Sequence record: PP400781
DNA: 64,000 nucleotides
Strand: one strand, 5' to 3'
From: Escherichia phage FL20
A model generated the notes under the pieces. That model saw only the letters and a program-made list of their open reading frames with translations. It was not told the DNA's origin and searched no databases. Below, in pieces: positions 49,286-57,900 of this stretch (positions are counted from its first letter, which is position 1; each line of letters starts with the position of its first letter). The translations under genes were made by a program, and so were the position numbers.

Positions 49286-49615
49286 TCAAACCAGCTTGAG
49301 ATAGTTTTCGTTAACGTTTTCTTCTGTGATCTCGGTTTTAAACTCATTACCAACATCAGGAGAAACATAATAGCGTTCGGAATAATCACGCCACATTTTC
49401 AGTAGGCTGACACCAACATTAACACCATTTTCCCAGAAACGGAAGATAATTTTATTTGCGGTGTAGCGGTAATCGCTTTGAATCAAGCTGCCATCACCGC
49501 GACGTGATTCATAAACCGTAATACATTCACGGTTAGCGGCTTTAAGACATTCTTCAATAGTGCCGCATGAGATAATTTCGGTTGAGTCGTTTACGATTTG
49601 TTCTACAGTCCACAT
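49286..49615 (-). CDS. hypothetical protein (109 aa)
   Basis: ORF downstream of PeSL; frd.x position. Confidence 0.5.
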   Translation of the reverse strand: MWTVEQIVNDSTEIISCGTIEECLKAANRECITVYESRRGDGSLIQSDYRYTANKIIFRFWENGVNVGVSLLKMWRDYSERYYVSPDVGNEFKTEITEENVNENYLKLV

Positions 49616-49674
49616 AATATAATCCTCTCTTTGTTTCGATGTGTGTATTATACATTACCACATCAGCATGTCAA
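49616..49674 (-). promoter_or_regulatory. PeSL-like early promoter cassette
   Basis: TTGACA / 16 nt / TATAAT / leader CACACATCGAAACAAAGAGAGGATT. Confidence 0.6.
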
Positions 49675-49701
49675 CACCTTTTTCATAAAATTTTAGTCAA
49701 T

Positions 49702-49726
49702 AAAAAAGCCTCCCCGAAGGAAGGCT
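49702..49726 (-). terminator. rho-independent terminator after gene 32
   Basis: Minus-strand hairpin AGCCTTCC-TTCG-GGGAGGCT followed by 6 U. Confidence 0.7.
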
Positions 49727-49736
49727 TTAAAATTCA

Positions 49737-50738
49737 TTACATCCCTAACAGAGCGTCAAGATCATCCAGATCAGAAGCGGAGGAAGTACCGCCACCCAGA
49801 TCCAGCGATGCCATCAGGTCATCAGCGGAAGAATCTAACGCCGTGCTAGCTGCGTTAATACCAACTACAGTGCTAGCTGCGTTAATACCAACTACAGTGC
49901 TAGCTGCGTTAATACCAGAATCGAATGCATTCATCTGTGCGTCAAAATCGTCAAGCTGGCTGTTAATCGCTGCCGCAGCACTGGAAGCCGCAGCACCAGC
50001 TACCATAGAAACGCCCATAGTTTTCTTAAATTTTGTTTCCAGTTCATCGAACGGTTTAAACTGGCTAGGCGCTACAATCTCACTCAGATCAACCATGTTT
50101 TCCATCAGATATTTCTGATATGCTTCGTCTTCAATTTTCGGAAGCTGTGATTGCTGCATGAAACGAGAATCATCATAGTTCTGGTGTTTATCAACCTTCT
50201 TAGCTTTCAGGAGGAAGTTAGCACCAGAGAACACACAAGTTACATCGACCGGAACTTCGCCCATATCGGTATTCACGTTCACCATTGCAACGATCTTATC
50301 ATAAATTTTCTGACCGAAGCGGAATTTGAATACCTTACCTTCATTTTCTGGTGCTTGAGGATCTTTCAGTACCAGAATATTTGCGTAGTAAGACGCTTTA
50401 CGCTTAATCAGTTGCCATTCGGTTTTATCGGTATTGTACAGGTCTTTTTCGTTAATATATTTGCACACAGGGCAAGAATCAAAATCACCGTGGGTGCTGG
50501 AGCAGTTTTCCCAATACCATTTGCCATTAACTTTGAAGGAATGGTTTACCAGTTTCACAATCGGCAGACCGTCTTCTGTCTTAGACGGCAGGAAGCGAAT
50601 CAGGGCTTCACCGTTACCTGCTGCATCAGTCTTAATCTTCCACTCTTTTGGATCTTCTTTGGAGAAACCGTTGCCACCTTTCAGTGCGGCCAGTTGAGCT
50701 TGCAGTTTGGAGCTATCTTGACGACGAAACATGTTCAT
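49737..50738 (-). CDS. 32: single-stranded DNA-binding protein gp32
   Basis: N-terminal KxKx-like basic region, [13 protein letters not shown], zinc ligands [16 protein letters not shown]; acidic C-terminal domain. Confidence 0.9.
49843..49916. repeat. 27-bp tandem repeat (about 2.7 copies) in gene 32 C-terminal domain
   Basis: GTGCTAGCTGCGTTAATACCAACTACA repeated; encodes GINAASTVV x2-3. Confidence 0.85.
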
Positions 50739-50798
50739 AATTATACCTCTTTATACATTAACTATTGATTAATTTACGTTTTATACTATATCAGATAC

Positions 50799-51395
50799 TT
50801 AATTGCTTGTCAATACTTTATCAATTATATCTAACAGTTTTGGCTTTCTATTTTCAAATTCTAACATCTCTTCGGGAGAAATGTCAACTACTTCTGTTTT
50901 GTTGAAAAAGTTTGGGTCTATAGCATCAGCAACAAAGTTTCTCGCAAGTGCTGCCGCTTTCTCATGAACATATATTCCCAAATATATCAACTTCTTTCTT
51001 TCGACCTGAATATTGGCAACATATTTACCATCTCGTTTATAAAGACTAACACCGATATATTCAGACGATCGACCTTTCTGTTTACCCATATTTCTTGAGT
51101 TTTGTTGCTCGTTCGCATCTCTCAAGTTTTCAATCCGATTATCTGTTATAATTCGGTTAACATGGTCAACGTATTTTGGCATGTATCCATGATGCATAAA
51201 GAAAATTATTCTATGCTCTTTATGATGTTTACCATCGATACACACCAATCTGTATCCATGACTAGGATTAACTCCACCCGCTCTAGATCCGACTTTATGC
51301 TTTCTGTTTGTCGATATCTTGCGAATCAGCTTACCGTTATCATATTTAAAGAGTTCATGACAACGAGCATACAATTCAGGATCATATGTTTTCAC
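50799..51395 (-). CDS. HNH homing endonuclease with AP2 DNA-binding domain
   Basis: HNH core GYRLVCIDGKHHKEHR...VDHVNRIITDNRIENLR; AP2-like YIGVSLYKRDGKYVANIQ; between 32 and 59 where T4 carries segG. Confidence 0.8.
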   Translation of the reverse strand: MKTYDPELYARCHELFKYDNGKLIRKISTNRKHKVGSRAGGVNPSHGYRLVCIDGKHHKEHRIIFFMHHGYMPKYVDHVNRIITDNRIENLRDANEQQNSRNMGKQKGRSSEYIGVSLYKRDGKYVANIQVERKKLIYLGIYVHEKAAALARNFVADAIDPNFFNKTEVVDISPEEMLEFENRKPKLLDIIDKVLTSN

Positions 51396-52059
51396 CTTTT
51401 AACCTCGATATTTCTTTACACTCTTTAACTACTTTAACAAATAATGCTCTTGCTTTTGCGGCGTCAATAACAAGTAGTTTCTTGTACGCCTTCATTTTAA
51501 CACTATAAGTTTGCCAAATCAAGTCTTTGGCTACCTTGTCGTGTTCGTCGATTATATTTAGAAAGCTATCTAACAACATAAACGACTCAAACGATATAAT
51601 CCGATTTTGCAGTAGTTTAAAGATACCGCTAGTTTCGGTTGCGGGATTATATGTAATTAGCTCTTTAAGAGTAACCCCGCGTTTCTCTGAGAAGTATACA
51701 AGACTTTTAATGTCATCGTCAAATCTTGTTGCTGCATCTGTTATCTTTCCTATGTATTCCATATAAAAGCCGTATGCGTCAACATCAGTGATTTCACCTA
51801 CCCATGCATCGGTATTAGCTACCAGATTGCTTAGGAATAGGAAGTATAATTCTCTTAGATTGTACTTTTCCGCTAATTTTGCGAAATAATACTTATCTCT
51901 GCGTTTATTGAATGCGGCATCAGATAACCGCATCCTCCAATTATATTTTACGCAATCATAACGCCCGTTCATATGAGCTTTCATCATGCAATATAACATA
52001 TACACAGATTTAGCATTAATTCGCATATCTGGATCTGGAGGAAGACGGTTTCTGATCAT
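51382..52059 (-). CDS. 59: helicase loader gp59
   Basis: GKSVY.LY...HMNG.YD..KYNW.MR.SDAA..KRRDKY.F.KL similar to T4 gp59. Confidence 0.9.
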   Translation of the reverse strand: MIRNRLPPDPDMRINAKSVYMLYCMMKAHMNGRYDCVKYNWRMRLSDAAFNKRRDKYYFAKLAEKYNLRELYFLFLSNLVANTDAWVGEITDVDAYGFYMEYIGKITDAATRFDDDIKSLVYFSEKRGVTLKELITYNPATETSGIFKLLQNRIISFESFMLLDSFLNIIDEHDKVAKDLIWQTYSVKMKAYKKLLVIDAAKARALFVKVVKECKEISRLKGENI

Positions 52060-52068
52060 ACATACCCC

Positions 52069-52338
52069 TTAAATATCGAGAGTGTTGGTCGGTTCGTCGA
52101 TCACTCCCTTCCTGAGCGTTCTATTTACTATACATTCTTGTGTGATCTTGTCAATAATGGACACCGGAATATATTTCTGATAGTGACCATATTCTATAGA
52201 GTTTTCCTCTACAAACTGAGTTGTCGCTTCAAGATAAGTCAATCCCTCTTCAACAACCAGTTTTTCGATTGCAAGACCGTTTGCTGTTTTATTCGCGGCT
52301 TTTACCGCATGTTCATTAAGCATTGAACACCCGATCAT
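52069..52338 (-). CDS. 33: late transcription accessory protein gp33
   Basis: YLEATT.F.EENSI similar to T4 gp33; synteny 59-33-dsbA. Confidence 0.7.
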   Translation of the reverse strand: MIGCSMLNEHAVKAANKTANGLAIEKLVVEEGLTYLEATTQFVEENSIEYGHYQKYIPVSIIDKITQECIVNRTLRKGVIDEPTNTLDI

Positions 52339-52591
52339 AGAGTTCTACTGCTTCATCGCGTTCTGCTTCGAAGGTTTCGCGCTGTTGCTGGTGATACAGT
52401 TTAAACAGAATGCCCCACATTTTACCATCTACGCCTAATTCTTCTTTAGCACGCTGTTTGATCTCTTTGATCTTATCGCCATATGCTTCTTGAATGGTTT
52501 TCTGATCACTGGCTTCTTTAATCAGTTGTGCCAGGGTATTTCCGTGCACTGCTTCGTCAAATACTACTTTTTCTTTTTTCTGTTCAGTCAT
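52316..52591 (-). CDS. dsbA: dsDNA-binding protein DsbA
   Basis: FDEA.HG..LA..IKEASD, ELGVDGKM, FEAE..E.VELYD.VF match T4 DsbA. Confidence 0.75.
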   Translation of the reverse strand: MTEQKKEKVVFDEAVHGNTLAQLIKEASDQKTIQEAYGDKIKEIKQRAKEELGVDGKMWGILFKLYHQQQRETFEAERDEAVELYDRVFNA

Positions 52592-52595
52592 AATA

Positions 52596-53192
52596 TTAAC
52601 CCTCTTTCGTCATTAATTGAAAACCACGTTCAGCTTTTGAAATTTCGCTAGGACTTAAATCGTCACCAACATATTCTAGCATCATTTCTCGGATAATGTC
52701 AAGTGCTTTTTCATCACCTGATTTTAACTCGAACTCAAGTTCATAGTGAGCATCTCCCATGACTTCGCCGACTTTGCAATAATAGAAAGTGTCTTTGCAC
52801 ATTTCCACTATAGCACCCTCAAGGTCAAGTGTCAATGACTTGAGGTATGTCATTACTTGCAACAAAGGAACTATAAGGTCGGAGTTTACGCCTAGACTAT
52901 CAACATAGTGATAGAAATCATCCATTGTTGAAAAAGTAATTTCTTCTCGGTTGAATAGTCCAGATTCACCATCACCTATTTTGATCATGATCAATGATCT
53001 ATTAACGTCAAGTCGAGCATAAATTCCTTTTCGACGCAGTGCATGATCTTCGGTATCATAATAAAATTCGTGTTTTAGAGTGTTAGCATGATCTACGATA
53101 TTGTACCCGTCATACATTGCCGCCCACAAATCACAGATGGTTTCGACGCCAATTTGTGAGTGTACATAGTATTTTAATTCAAGTTCTTTCAT
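52596..53192 (-). CDS. CYTH-like (triphosphate tunnel metalloenzyme family) protein
   Basis: N-terminal ELELKYYV (ExExK), YYDTEDHALRRKGIYARLD, C-terminal HYELEFELK; not present between dsbA and rnh in T4. Confidence 0.55.
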   Translation of the reverse strand: MKELELKYYVHSQIGVETICDLWAAMYDGYNIVDHANTLKHEFYYDTEDHALRRKGIYARLDVNRSLIMIKIGDGESGLFNREEITFSTMDDFYHYVDSLGVNSDLIVPLLQVMTYLKSLTLDLEGAIVEMCKDTFYYCKVGEVMGDAHYELEFELKSGDEKALDIIREMMLEYVGDDLSPSEISKAERGFQLMTKEG

Positions 53193-53202
53193 GTGTCAAC
53201 CC

Positions 53203-54150
53203 TTAGAACTCACCAATTTTCTGTAACATTTTAACTAACGCATTTGTTACAAAATAGTTATAAATTTTACCGCGTGGTGCTGGTTTAGATTTTTCCCATG
53301 CTAACAAAATTTCATATTCGATGTTATCGGGAATAAATTCAAAATCAATAAGTTCGCGGTTTTCGTCAAAGCGTCGTGCTTCTTCCTCTGTCATCAAAGA
53401 CTTTGGATCTTCGGCATCGAAAATTTGCTCTAACCATTTGGTTGCAATTGGTTTAGCTCGTTCTCCTTCCAGTCGTGAGATAATGAAATCACTACGGCAC
53501 TTGATCGAAGCTACACCGTCTTTTGCGTCACCCTTAACACATTTTACCATAAGGTCTTTGTAAGGGCTACCATATTTGCATTTCTTCCATGCTTTCTGTA
53601 CTGGCGCCCACTGTTTCACATTTTTGTATTTGTGCAACTGTGTGTAGTCACCATCGCCGGAGTTGATTAGCACCTGGCGACCTTCTACAGAAAACTTTTT
53701 AGTTAATACAGCGATTATGTCATCTGCTTCAACTTTGTCAACCTTAATAACGTGATAAGGCATGTTCTCTTTAAACTCTTCGGTGATCTTATTGATCGCA
53801 GCAAAGATCATCTCCCAATCACGCGGATCTGCGTCTCGTTTTTCCTTACGGTTGCGTTTATAGTAAGGGGCGATATCACGTCGCCAGTAACCTTTGCTTG
53901 AATCAAAAGCAAGTACCGTAATAGGGTATTGCTCTTTGAATTTTGTCATATTATAACGCATGGTGTCAAGAATAAGATGACGGATCATGCCTTCATTAAT
54001 AGGATCTTCCGGTTTAAAGGTATGCGAGATAGTGGCAATCATAAGCTGCGACATATCAATCAAATGCACACCTTCCGGTAGTTTATCTTCTGGATCATCG
54101 AAGAAATCATTAAGTGTAGCGGTCGTTTTTGTAAACGGGTTATACGTCAT
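53203..54150 (-). CDS. rnh: RNase H (5'-3' exonuclease, FEN family)
   Basis: GYWRRD, MPY.V...DK.EADD.IAVL.KKFS.EG, SGDGD.TQLHKY.NVKQW, PRGKIY.YFV match T4 RNase H. Confidence 0.9.
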   Translation of the reverse strand: MTYNPFTKTTATLNDFFDDPEDKLPEGVHLIDMSQLMIATISHTFKPEDPINEGMIRHLILDTMRYNMTKFKEQYPITVLAFDSSKGYWRRDIAPYYKRNRKEKRDADPRDWEMIFAAINKITEEFKENMPYHVIKVDKVEADDIIAVLTKKFSVEGRQVLINSGDGDYTQLHKYKNVKQWAPVQKAWKKCKYGSPYKDLMVKCVKGDAKDGVASIKCRSDFIISRLEGERAKPIATKWLEQIFDAEDPKSLMTEEEARRFDENRELIDFEFIPDNIEYEILLAWEKSKPAPRGKIYNYFVTNALVKMLQKIGEF

Positions 54151-54152
54151 AA

Positions 54153-54338
54153 TTAAGTTCTCTCCACTCTCACAACAACATATTCTTCAAACGAGTTAGA
54201 TACTTCACGGTCATACCCGTATTTCTCCATAACTCGCAGAATTGCATTGTTTAATTCGGCACGGAAATAATTGTAATCCTTATCAGGGATTCTGTCAACT
54301 ACCCATTTTGCACCTTCTGACAAATCAACTTTAACCAT
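54153..54338 (-). CDS. hypothetical small protein (61 aa)
   Basis: ORF coupled upstream of rnh. Confidence 0.4.
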   Translation of the reverse strand: MVKVDLSEGAKWVVDRIPDKDYNYFRAELNNAILRVMEKYGYDREVSNSFEEYVVVRVERT

Positions 54339-54344
54339 AATATA

Positions 54345-54910
54345 TCATCCTCTTTTTGGAAAATTTAAATAAGCATACTCGCCAACTCTTTCATGTGCTG
54401 CACGGTCATAAGCCTTAGCCGCCTCAACTTCTGTCTCAAAGTATCCTAGATGTATATTCTTTCGATTGATAACAATATACGCCTTCCACGGCTTTTTCTT
54501 GCTTGTTGATAATGATACACCTTTATATTTGCTATGACAAGCCTTTTTCTTTGAGACGTTAAACTGATTTTGCTGTTCTGTTGCTTCTCTCATGTTTGAC
54601 GGTCTATTGTTAGTTTTGTCTTGGTCTATGTGATCTATTAGTTCAACCTGAGTACCATACTCTAAAAACCAGACAACTCTATGTACAAATAGATTAAGTT
54701 TATGACCATTGTTATAAAATGTAAAGTATAAATATCCTTCTTTATGGAGACGTTACCCTTACCACATCACCTTTTTTGTATCTGGACCCTTCTTTTCGGA
54801 ATCCAGCAGCTACAGAATCCTTTAAATGGTATAATATTCCATCAACATGATAAAATCTACCTTTTATCGCTTTCTGTGTCTCGATATCCCAAAATTTTGT
54901 TTTTGCCACA
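54345..54910 (-). pseudogene. degraded HNH-AP2 homing endonuclease (paralog of 50799..51395)
   Basis: AP2 part intact from internal Met (YKGVSL...KPWKAYIVINRKNIHLGYF); HNH motif HRVVW...IDHIDQDKTNNRPSN in frame but without start; N-terminal part in another frame. Confidence 0.55.
54727..54734 (+). promoter_or_regulatory. T4-type late promoter TATAAATA
   Basis: Exact TATAAATA 227 nt upstream of gene 34, inside the endonuclease remnant. Confidence 0.35.
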
Positions 54911-54960
54911 ACAACACCTCACACAATAAATAATTTCATATTATAACAGGAGACCCAATA

Positions 54961-57900
54961 ATGGCAGATTTTTCTCAACATTTCAAGGCCACATTTGGCT
55001 TTGACGCTGGTAATGAAAAGGTCGTCAATGTAGCATACGCAGATAAAAACACATCAACGGATGCGGTCAACGTTGAATTTTTCAATTACCATAATGGTAT
55101 TACTCAGTATGACACAACTCGCGGTTATGATCAATACGGAACTACAATCTATCAAAACCGTCCATATTATGCAAAAGAAGATATCACAAAGCCAGCAGGT
55201 GATTTTGACCCGACTAAATGGCAAGCACTGCGCACGGACCCACGTTGGGATTATGTTGCAGCCACTTCCGGTGATACTCCTTTAAAGTCTGGTGATTATA
55301 TCGCAGCAGATGGTCAATTTGCAAACTTGACTTTCTCTATGCCAACTAAACCAGCAGAGGGAGACACTATAACAGTAAAAGATATCGGTGGCAAGTGTGG
55401 TGTTAACGAATTATCGTTCTTGAGTTCAGGACACGAGTTTTACCATAACGGTAATGTGTATAACCGAAAATGGTATTGCACTACCCCGTATGCAATGAAC
55501 TATTTCATCTTTGTTCGGAATCGTTGGCATGTTTATCAGACGGGAACAGAGCCGCGCGGTGTGTACGCACAGCCAGCGATTGATGCTATTCAAATGCAGA
55601 ATGGTGATCAGGTATTTCGTCGTAGTTCGTTGGGTAATATTACCTTAGTGCTTCCTAAGTTTGCCAACAATGGCGACATGATCCAGACTACAGACCTTGA
55701 CGGATTAACCGCAACCAACCACGTTACGGTTAAAGTTCATGAGCACGCAGAAGAACAATCAATTGGCACGTCCGGTCTAAAAGAGATTATCGGTAAGCGT
55801 AGCGGTCATGGTGTATTCATCTTTGACAAGACGGAAAACTTATGGCGTTTGTGGGATGATGATCAGTCTGTTCGTCTTAACCCGATCATCAATGACACTC
55901 GCTTGCAACCTAATAGCTATGTTGCTGTATTTGGTGGTCGTGATGTTACTCTGACGCTGCCGACCAATGTCGAGCCGGGTGATCGTATTCAAGTTTCTAT
56001 GCAGTATATGCACGGAAACCAGACTTGCCGAATCATTACCTCAGAAGAGGATACAAAAATCCTTATGCAGAAAAACATGGTTCAGTTTCCTAAGCGTAGC
56101 GAGTACCCATTCAATGGGACCGATACATGGACTGGAGTGTCTGAATTGTCTTTCAACGCTGCAAATGATTATGTACCTTATCTGGAGTTCTCTTATTCAG
56201 AAGGTGATGATGGTAAGAAATACTGGTTGGTGGCACATGCTCACCCGATTGTAGAACGAGTAGATCCGACTCGTAAAGATCGTGTTGGTGTAATTGCACT
56301 GGCTACCCAGGATGAAACAAACAAAAACCATGAAGATAATCCTAGCGACGAAGTTGCGGTGACTCCAAAGGTTCTGGCTAACAAAACAGCCAACGAAACT
56401 CGACGCGGTATTGCTCGCATTGCGACTCAAGCGGAAACGCATCAAGATACTGGTTCCAACTTCCTGGATGATGTTATCGTTACGCCTAAAAAGTTAAATG
56501 ACTGTGTTGCTACCGAAGCCCGTCGTGGTGTGATGGAAATTGCAACCCAGCACGAAACCAATGAAGGTTTAGACGATACCCGCGCTATTACTCCTAAGAA
56601 ATTAGAAGAACGTCGCGCTTCCGAAGATCTCGCTGGTATTGCTGAAATTGTTCAGGTTGGCGGTAGTGCTGCCGCTCGACGTGGCGAAGCTGGTACAGGG
56701 ATCTATAACATCAACGACCATGCTAAAATTGTTACGCCACAAAACATCAACGAAGTCAAGGCGACCGAAACTTCCCGTGGTGTTGGCTATCTGGCAACTG
56801 ACGCGGAAGTGCAAGGGGCTACAGAATCAACCCCGCAAGATGCTTTACTAATCACGACTCGCACGCTAACGAAACGTACTGCTACCGAATCTCGCACTGG
56901 TATCGCTGAAATTGCAACTCAGGAAGAAACAAACTTAGGTCAAAGTGATAACCATATCATCACGCCTAAAAAGCTGCATACTCGCCGCGCAACGGAAACT
57001 TTACACGGTTTAGCAGAAATTGCAACTCAGTCGGAATTTGACGCAGGTCTTGACGATGCTCGCATTTCTACCCCATTGAAGATTAAAACCTTCTTTGAGA
57101 ATGCACAGCGTTTGAAAGTAGATCCGACTCAGGGGCTTAACCTTACTGGTGATTTGTGGCAAGGTATCATGATCAGCGGTCTGGATGCAACCGAAGACAC
57201 AAAAGGTGTCTCTAAAGTTGCTACTACTCAGCTTACGGATGCTGGTCAAGATGATACTACAATCATCACTCCTAAAAAGCTGCAAGGCAAAAAGGCCACC
57301 GAAGGTAAAGAAGGTATTATCCGAGTTGGTACTCAAGCCGAAACCGTGGCTGGTATTATGGACAATGTAGCAATTTCTCCGAAGAACTTCAAATATGTTG
57401 TTCAGACAGAGGATACATGGAAAGCAACCGAAGCGCGTCGTGGATTCTTGAAAGTTGCTACTCAGGAAAACTGTTTTGTTGGTGATAATCTGCAAGGTTC
57501 TACTCAAGAACTAGGAAACTACCAGCATGACGGAATTGCTGTTACCCCTAAAGGATTAAACTACGCACTTGCTAATTTCTTACCTAAGATGGCAACCGCT
57601 CAGAATAGTTTGAAATTGGGTAACGTAGAGGCCGCTAAATGGGCGCGTAGAGACGTTGACCAGACCATTGAGAGCAATTACACGTTTAATAAAAAAGTTA
57701 ACGTGAAGGGCGATTTAGAGTGCTTAAAATCTGGTTCCTTTGAAACTCTGTCTGTGACTAAGAACTCAACCGATGATCCGAGTAATGGTCATCTGGTGTT
57801 GGGTGAGCGTGGAGTTGACGGTCACACCGGAATTACTCTGCATGGCACAACCGCATCGGAAGGCATGGAAAACTCATGGTCTATTATCGTTGGTGGCACT

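Follow-up and report, generated by a model that had tools for sequence, protein, structure and literature searches.

By its sequence profiles and predicted structure, the protein encoded between rnh and dsbA in Escherichia phage FL20 (sequence record PP400781; the 64,000-nucleotide stretch analysed is called the window) is a triphosphate-tunnel (CYTH) protein. It is likely to be a stand-alone YgiF-like triphosphate phosphohydrolase, the product of an accessory gene with a recombining centre, and not a cyclase. The source phage is a Krischvirus (RB49-like, 'pseudo-T-even'), and the 2.7-kb region compared is 96–98% identical to KFS-EC, FL15, PHB13, RB49 and others. The CYTH assignment itself is already known for the RB49 orthologue: the RefSeq note on RB49p245 reads 'similar to ... 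ygiF', and Nolan et al. 2006 (PMC1524935) list 'RB49ORF244c, CYTH domain, 0.0026' among novel open reading frames (ORFs). GenBank labels are mostly 'hypothetical protein' and in a few cases 'inorganic triphosphatase' or 'adenylate cyclase', and PHROG 14893 is labelled 'unknown function'. As found, the domain assignment matters little; it bears out an annotation made 20 years ago and sets right the 'adenylate cyclase' label in some GenBank records. What is new here is the residue-level assignment to a putative YgiF-like hydrolase, a Y-x-R-x-D motif, a hypervariable recombining cassette and a substitution, R117L, private to the window.

Fold and active site

An earlier note, made from the letters of this DNA, had read the gene as an inserted CYTH gene whose product might make or destroy a nucleotide signal. 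The hallmarks it had seen at the two ends of the protein are in place, with ELELK at residues 3–7 and HYELEFELK at residues 149–157, and profile, model and motif evidence together support a CYTH/triphosphate-tunnel protein with metal-binding glutamates. Pfam family PF01928 scores 24.6 bits (cut-off 23.2) over profile positions 1–178 of 179. A profile of 21 family members aligns with 24 bacterial CYTH proteins (hhalign 99.84%, E 2.5e-30). The AlphaFold2 model (predicted local distance difference test (pLDDT) 89.4, predicted template modelling score (pTM) 0.82) has eight long strands and a C-terminal helix, which are predicted to form an antiparallel β-barrel tunnel closed by the helix as a plug. 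YgiF is the closest structure, followed only by triphosphate-tunnel enzymes: BH2851 (16.2), a plant TTM3-like protein (15.6), thiamine triphosphatase (14.8), the mimivirus capping enzyme (13.4), CyaB (12.2) and Cet1 (11.1). The viral structure library yielded nothing close outside the phage CYTH family itself.

In YgiF, metal 1 is kept on the substrate by Glu-160, and the attacking water is activated by metal 2, whose ligands are Glu-4, Glu-6 and Glu-162; Arg-56 is the catalytic arginine and Lys-69 aids substrate binding (Martinez et al. 2015, PMC4641920). All six catalytic residues have equivalents in the phage protein: E3 and E5 (Glu-4 and Glu-6, the site 2 ligands), E153 (Glu-160, metal 1), E155 (Glu-162, metal 2), K71 (Lys-69) and, from the alignments, R60 (Arg-56). 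The two-metal hydrolase residues are conserved across 56 family sequences, except for E153K in phage pEJ01, and the β8 motif is invariant in the same set save for this change and K157V in P0044, a divergent family member. In the plug helix, S185 and K186 are invariant, outgroups included. The basic residues of the family tunnel are R60, K71, R82, R117 and K157; the second β3 Arg is replaced by Asp in 55 of the 56 sequences, and the window allele has Leu at 117 (Table 1).

The register of β3 was worked out from alignments, DSSP assignments for two models and strand parity. In the model of a YgiF-like outgroup protein (P0058, pLDDT 96.9), the hairpin runs from strand 54–60 through a turn at N61–G62 to strand 63–69, which places K69 opposite G54 and the first Arg opposite T67. 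The hairpin of the phage model comprises strand 57–62, loop 63–66 and strand 67–76, and its conserved tunnel-facing residues fall at even positions on β3 and odd positions on β4. This geometry and parity pair D62 with L67, R60 with M69 and Y58 with K71, which makes R60 the putative catalytic Arg, puts D62 in place of the second Arg and leaves the hairpin two residues shorter than that of YgiF. Y58 occupies the aromatic stacking position of the thiamine-triphosphatase-type W/YxRxR motif, where YgiF has Gly. The resulting Y-x-R-x-D motif is widespread in the family, with Tyr in 53 of 56 sequences; P0044 and P0045 are without it. An ungapped HMMER alignment gives another register, with Y58 opposite Arg-56 and a cyclase-like or inactive look. 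It was rejected: MAFFT with outgroups, hhalign and the hairpin register all give R60.

If the phage enzyme follows the mechanism of its family, the triphosphate group would be held in the middle of the eight-stranded barrel by R60, K71, R82, R117 and K157. E153 would hold metal 1 on the substrate, and metal 2, held by E3, E5 and E155, would activate a water molecule, so that the terminal phosphate is cleaved off.

Chemistry and candidate substrates

True class IV adenylyl cyclases carry three signatures: an HFxxxxExExK motif, a small residue in place of the first Arg and Ala in place of the second β8 Glu (Vogt et al. 2021, PMC8233210). All three are absent from the phage protein. It begins MKELELK, with no upstream residues to carry an HF motif; the first Arg of RxR is kept as R60 (under the ungapped HMMER register the residue would be Tyr, likewise not small); and the second Glu of the β8 ExE is kept as E155, which is invariant. 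No hit was obtained at E ≤ 1 with NCBIfam TIGR00318 (cyaB) or with NCBIfam generally, and the closest structure, YgiF, is inactive on ATP (PMC3440374). Three GenBank records do annotate the gene as a cyclase, but according to PMC3440374 CYTH proteins are known to carry 'adenylate cyclase' as a legacy mis-annotation. On these grounds it is scarcely credible that the protein is a CyaB-type class IV cyclase, adenylyl or nucleotidyl, that makes cyclic AMP or some other cyclic nucleotide during infection. The option in the earlier note that the protein might make a nucleotide signal falls with it, and the option that it might destroy one is speculative; the CYTH protein with metal-binding glutamates and the lineage-specific insertion stand.

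The putative hydrolase has two classes of candidate substrate. YgiF is strictly specific for inorganic triphosphate (PPPi) and does not act on ATP (PMC3440374), and PPPi would by analogy be the default candidate. An organic triphosphate, such as a nucleoside or deoxynucleoside triphosphate (NTP or dNTP), a 5′-triphosphate (5′-ppp) RNA or a thiamine-triphosphate-like molecule, seems about equally likely, because Y58 lies at the ring-stacking position and D62 replaces the second phosphate-binding Arg. An aromatic side chain in the W/Y place of W/YxRxR is the mark of enzymes that stack a substrate ring, W53 of thiamine triphosphatase being an example (PMC8233210). Y-x-R-x-D appears to be a distinct family variant and hints at an organic triphosphate, even though Tyr is missing from the two most divergent members.

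An RNA 5′-triphosphatase, converting ppp-RNA to pp-RNA, would be one form of such an enzyme. Its targets could be host transcripts, feeding decay by RppH and RNase E, or the pppAC-initiated replication primers removed by the neighbouring RNase H; if true, the 'missing' ppp-to-pp RNA triphosphatase step before RppH/RNase E decay would come from the phage enzyme. We regard this as improbable. The protein is far closer to YgiF than to Cet1-type enzymes, and its nearest fold relatives are not the triphosphatases of capping enzymes. An RNA-binding surface is only hypothetical, the Tyr is missing from P0044 and P0045, and adjacency to rnh says little, because the T4-like gene order is conserved for historical reasons.

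Two ideas that would tie the gene to DNA modification were also considered and set aside. The proposal that CYTH proteins degrade unmodified NTPs (Iyer et al. 2021) is unsupported here, since Krischvirus has no genes of the hydroxymethylcytosine pathway. Two Krischvirus phages, SAP and TB34, share 99.96% identity, and the cytosines of SAP are fully modified and those of TB34 not at all; known modification genes are absent from both (PMC13390438). The CYTH gene is present in modified SAP and unmodified TB34 alike and is equally similar to the query in both, and a link to cytosine modification was dropped.

The window allele may not represent the family at full activity. Codon 117 reads CTC in the window and CGC in RB49, pEJ01, KFS-EC and SSG23; all other family members have Arg there, bacterial CYTH proteins do not vary at the position, and a 33-mer carrying the change has no match in any other phage record. 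Position 117 aligns with YgiF R126 and would correspond to Arg-125 of thiamine triphosphatase, which holds the cleaved γ-phosphate. Because R117 is invariant and equivalent to an Arg of this kind, the window enzyme is probably weakened. No mutational data for the equivalent Arg were found in the literature, so impairment is something that we infer. An independent substitution, E153K (GAG to AAG), affects the universal metal-1 glutamate of triphosphate-tunnel enzymes in pEJ01 (L005 3051-3059). Catalytic-site substitutions thus occur in 2 of 13 cultured isolates, and none that severe in 45 mostly metagenomic cluster representatives, both being small numbers.

A hypervariable cassette and possible roles

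Between the window and phage Skers, 60-nt bins from gp32 to rnh are 97–100% identical, and those over 52751–53160, inside the CYTH gene, fall to about 50%. Across 13 genomes, nucleotide diversity (π) is 0.12–0.21 at CYTH codons ~1–157, 0.03–0.04 in the last ~40 codons and 0.01–0.06 in the flanks. The ratio of non-synonymous to synonymous substitution rates (dN/dS) is 0.26 for the CYTH gene, the highest in the cluster (rnh 0.076, dsbA 0.067, gp59 0.048, gp33 0.034). The synonymous rate (dS) reaches 0.46 in codons 1–150, against 0.12–0.20 in neighbouring genes and 0.14 in the C-terminal 48 codons. Extra selective constraint was rejected as an explanation for the conserved C terminus, since this last value equals that of the flanking genes; shared recent ancestry therefore accounts for C-terminal conservation.

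Clustered at 85% identity, the cassette (codons 11–147) gives 13 classes. RB49-type (window), Skers-type and P0042-type cassettes share only 40–42% amino acid identity pairwise, whereas their C termini share 92–96% and the neighbouring genes 97–100%. An uncultured relative, with only about 80% identity in the neighbouring genes, has a copy that is equally divergent. The alleles of the 13 isolates and 45 cluster representatives are all intact, without frameshifts or stops, and range from 185 to 206 amino acids; seventeen tunnel residues are kept down to 28–36% overall identity. Variation is located in the surface helices 13–29 and 90–99 and in loops, with the tunnel-facing residues conserved. 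These data are most simply read as an active accessory enzyme with a fast-evolving surface, its centre being swapped between phages by homologous recombination, for which the conserved 5′ end (β1) and 3′ end (β8 plus helices) would serve as arms. A smaller diversity hotspot lies towards the C terminus of rnh, at codons ~255–300 (53259–53378), with π of 0.12–0.14, dS of 0.58 against 0.17 in the rest of rnh, and dN/dS of 0.11. The pattern suggests that mosaic recombination tracts reach from the CYTH cassette into rnh.

The same variability could mean lost constraint, the protein being a decaying or non-catalytic passenger (a pseudoenzyme or a binding protein), and R117L, E153K and the highest dN/dS of the cluster would fit this. 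Intact alleles of stable length, tunnel residues retained in the most divergent members, a dN/dS of about 0.25, which is clearly purifying, and a contrast between tunnel-facing and outward-facing conservation that fits a working enzyme make it very unlikely. A further alternative concerns role and is compatible with hydrolase chemistry: the enzyme could serve counter-defence or host takeover under arms-race selection, by removing a molecule that carries a triphosphate and either harms the phage or warns the host. dGTPases release PPPi, and the target could be PPPi from host dNTP triphosphohydrolases (Dgt-type or defence dGTPases) or a linear ppp-containing signalling nucleotide. Cassettes that diverge so far between nearly identical neighbours, a dN/dS 3–7 times that of the neighbours with the active site fixed, a genus-restricted accessory gene and catalytic-site mutations tolerated by isolates are in keeping with such a role. 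Relaxed constraint and recombination can also produce hypervariability, however, and we found no literature link to any defence system. Searched at E ≤ 1 against PADLOC, a library of defence and not of anti-defence, the window protein, P0044 and P0045 all came up without a hit. Known cyclic-oligonucleotide signals carry no triphosphate, and cyclic oligonucleotides are for this reason poor substrate candidates for a triphosphate-tunnel enzyme. The pyrophosphatase of E. coli already removes most PPPi (PMC3440374). We give this role a small but appreciable chance.

A more specific version has only a small chance of being right. In it the tunnel is fixed, the surface (codons 11–147) is swapped as a cassette between co-circulating phages because a host factor inhibits or senses the enzyme, and the substrate is an organic triphosphate with an immune or regulatory significance, for which the 5′-triphosphate of host transcripts or a triphosphate by-product or signal of nucleotide-depleting defences would be candidates. 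A fixed active site beneath a recombining hypervariable surface is the pattern of phage proteins that contact host factors, and a new host–phage interaction based on triphosphate chemistry is possible. To our knowledge, neither substrate nor role has been established for any phage CYTH enzyme, and our literature search found nothing specific on phage CYTH function, on counter-defence or on experiments with orthologues. The gene sits in a tractable phage of E. coli, and the natural variants R117L (window) and E153K (pEJ01) would be ready-made controls.

Several points weigh against the YgiF-like hydrolase that we prefer. The Pfam score exceeds its cut-off by 1.4 bits, and the only matches among Protein Data Bank (PDB) sequences are weak ones to E. 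coli YgiF (phmmer E 0.13, profile E 0.0055); the family is therefore divergent. The second Arg of RxR is Asp and a Tyr enters the tunnel, and specificity, or even chemistry, may differ from that of YgiF. Assignment of R60 comes from alignments and DSSP/parity logic, and the ungapped HMMER alignment sets Y58 opposite the catalytic Arg. The gene's place in the cluster by co-transcription is deduced from spacing. Finally, catalytic-site variants in 2 of 13 isolates suggest that the activity is dispensable in laboratory culture.

Distribution, locus and known systems

The gene is present in about 58 phage records, all Krischvirus, set against 1,574 with rnh homologues, as expected of a lineage-specific insertion at rnh–dsbA. 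The earlier note had placed rnh and dsbA next to each other in T4, which agrees with the ~9 nt between them in T6 and Aeromonas phage B614. A word-indexed search of 5.8 billion proteins returned 43 clusters, none of them under 44% identity. When 1.84 billion representatives were searched exhaustively with a profile, only 3 clusters fell below 1e-30 and 6 below 1e-10, and the tail past 1e-10 consisted of generic ~200-residue CYTH and ~500-residue CYTH–CHAD proteins. Scanning IMG/VR with the family alignment gave at least two loci; the distribution is drawn from GenBank phage records and metagenome contigs instead. On uncultured T4-like contigs, the divergent members P0043 (44% identity) and P0044 (34–36%) lie between rnh and dsbA, and P0045 (28%) lies just upstream of dsbA; from P0046 onward the gene context is cellular. 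The gene has therefore long been at home in the RB49-like lineage, its ultimate source being a cellular CYTH protein like YgiF, and would have stayed at the rnh–dsbA junction throughout that lineage.

Table 1. Features of the CYTH gene and its immediate neighbours in the window.
Feature	Position	Strand	Evidence
CYTH/triphosphate-tunnel gene, orthologue of RB49p245 / RB49ORF244c	52596..53192	minus	198 amino acids, ATG start
ExExK motif, β1: E3, E5, K7	53172..53186	minus	invariant in 56 family sequences; aligns to YgiF EIELK
Y58-A-R60-L-D62, β3	53007..53021	minus	MAFFT and hhalign alignments; hairpin register, DSSP, strand parity
K71, β4, equivalent of YgiF Lys-69	52980..52982	minus	invariant
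R82-E83-E84, β5, tunnel residues	52941..52949	minus	R82, E84 invariant in family and outgroups
Codon 117, CTC (Leu), equivalent of YgiF R126	52842..52844	minus	Arg in all other family members
E151-L-E153-F-E155-L-K157, β8	52722..52742	minus	residue count on HMMER alignment to 5a60
C-terminal plug helix, S185-K-A-E-R-G-F-Q-L193	52614..52640	minus	matches YgiF SKAARGYHL
Hypervariable central cassette, codons 11–147, conserved ends	52752..53162	minus	Skers comparison, π, 13 allele classes
rnh (T4-type RNase H / 5′-3′ exonuclease), upstream of CYTH	53203..54150	minus	Pfam RNaseH_C 2.6e-37
rnh–CYTH spacer, 10 nt, with ribosome-binding site	53193..53202	minus	sequence; terminator scan
dsbA, downstream of CYTH	52316..52591	minus	Pfam Phage_DsbA 5.4e-22

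The CYTH stop codon is separated from the dsbA start by a 4-nt gap, and gp33, gp59, an HNH/AP2 homing endonuclease gene and gp32 follow on the same strand. A terminator scan found no terminator-like site between rnh and dsbA, nor was a T4 late promoter, TATAAATA, found near the CYTH gene on its strand. Because the rnh–CYTH spacer holds no terminator, read-through from rnh is most likely, and the spacing suggests that the gene is probably co-transcribed with the rnh–dsbA–33–59 unit, a cluster for replication and late transcription, from upstream early-type promoters. On the minus strand of 49500–55100 there are 29 sigma-70-like matches against 18.9 ± 4.6 in shuffles, several of them near-perfect TTGACA-N17-TAxAAT sites within coding sequence; matches so numerous were not used for promoter assignment. 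Two putative sites in the CYTH gene (52835–52807 and 52702–52673) could drive dsbA/33. A third (53199–53171) starts in the rnh–CYTH spacer and extends into the 5′ end of the gene; its transcript would begin inside the ORF and could therefore not express the gene.

Other variable elements lie nearby. Between gene 34 and a small ORF upstream of rnh, the window has extra DNA (54345–54909, minus strand) that RB49, Skers and Phi1 lack; it matches at 98% an intact 187-codon HNH/AP2-type homing-endonuclease gene of pEJ01. In the window this gene is split by a frameshift into ORFs of 55 codons (54742–54909) and 82 codons with an AP2 domain (54345–54593), either as a decaying mobile element or through a sequencing error. 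A 198-residue HNH_3 and AP2 homing endonuclease is encoded at 50799–51395 (minus strand) between gp32 and gp59, and shares 14 nt with the 3′ end of gp59; it is found in Skers and pEJ01 and not in RB49, Phi1, Brandy and others. Mobile endonuclease genes have therefore inserted into the conserved replication cluster at least twice. The C-terminal region of gp32 contains a perfect 27-nt tandem repeat (2.8 copies, 49843–49917, minus strand) encoding GINAASTVV repeats, and its copy number varies, with a 27-nt indel relative to Skers at about 49872–49931.

Among known systems, RB49 ORF244c (RB49p245, PHROG 14893) is the same gene in the same slot, with 96% amino acid identity and no structural difference; R117L is private to the window allele. 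E. coli YgiF (PDB 5a60/5a61) is an inorganic triphosphatase with CYTH and CHAD domains. The phage protein lacks the CHAD domain, with 198 residues against 433, and ends 3 residues past the plug helix; the YgiF tunnel domain comprises residues 1–200. YgiF has G-x-R-x-R where the phage protein has Y-x-R-x-D with a β3–β4 hairpin two residues shorter, and with similarity barely detectable (phmmer E 0.13) the strict PPPi specificity of YgiF is not to be assumed. Class IV adenylyl cyclases (CyaB; Yersinia pestis 2fjt/3n10) share the CYTH fold, the ExExK motif and the two metal sites. The mammalian 25-kDa thiamine triphosphatase (3bhd, 5a64), of the W/YxRxR subgroup, is ~14% identical to the phage protein; its aromatic residue two positions ahead of the first Arg corresponds to Y58 by the hairpin register, but it has both Args, whereas the phage protein has D62 for the second. 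Far more distant are the Cet1-type and viral capping RNA triphosphatases (yeast Cet1, mimivirus, vaccinia D1, baculovirus LEF-4), which are usually fused to, or partnered with, a guanylyltransferase; we know of no E. coli phage that caps its mRNA.
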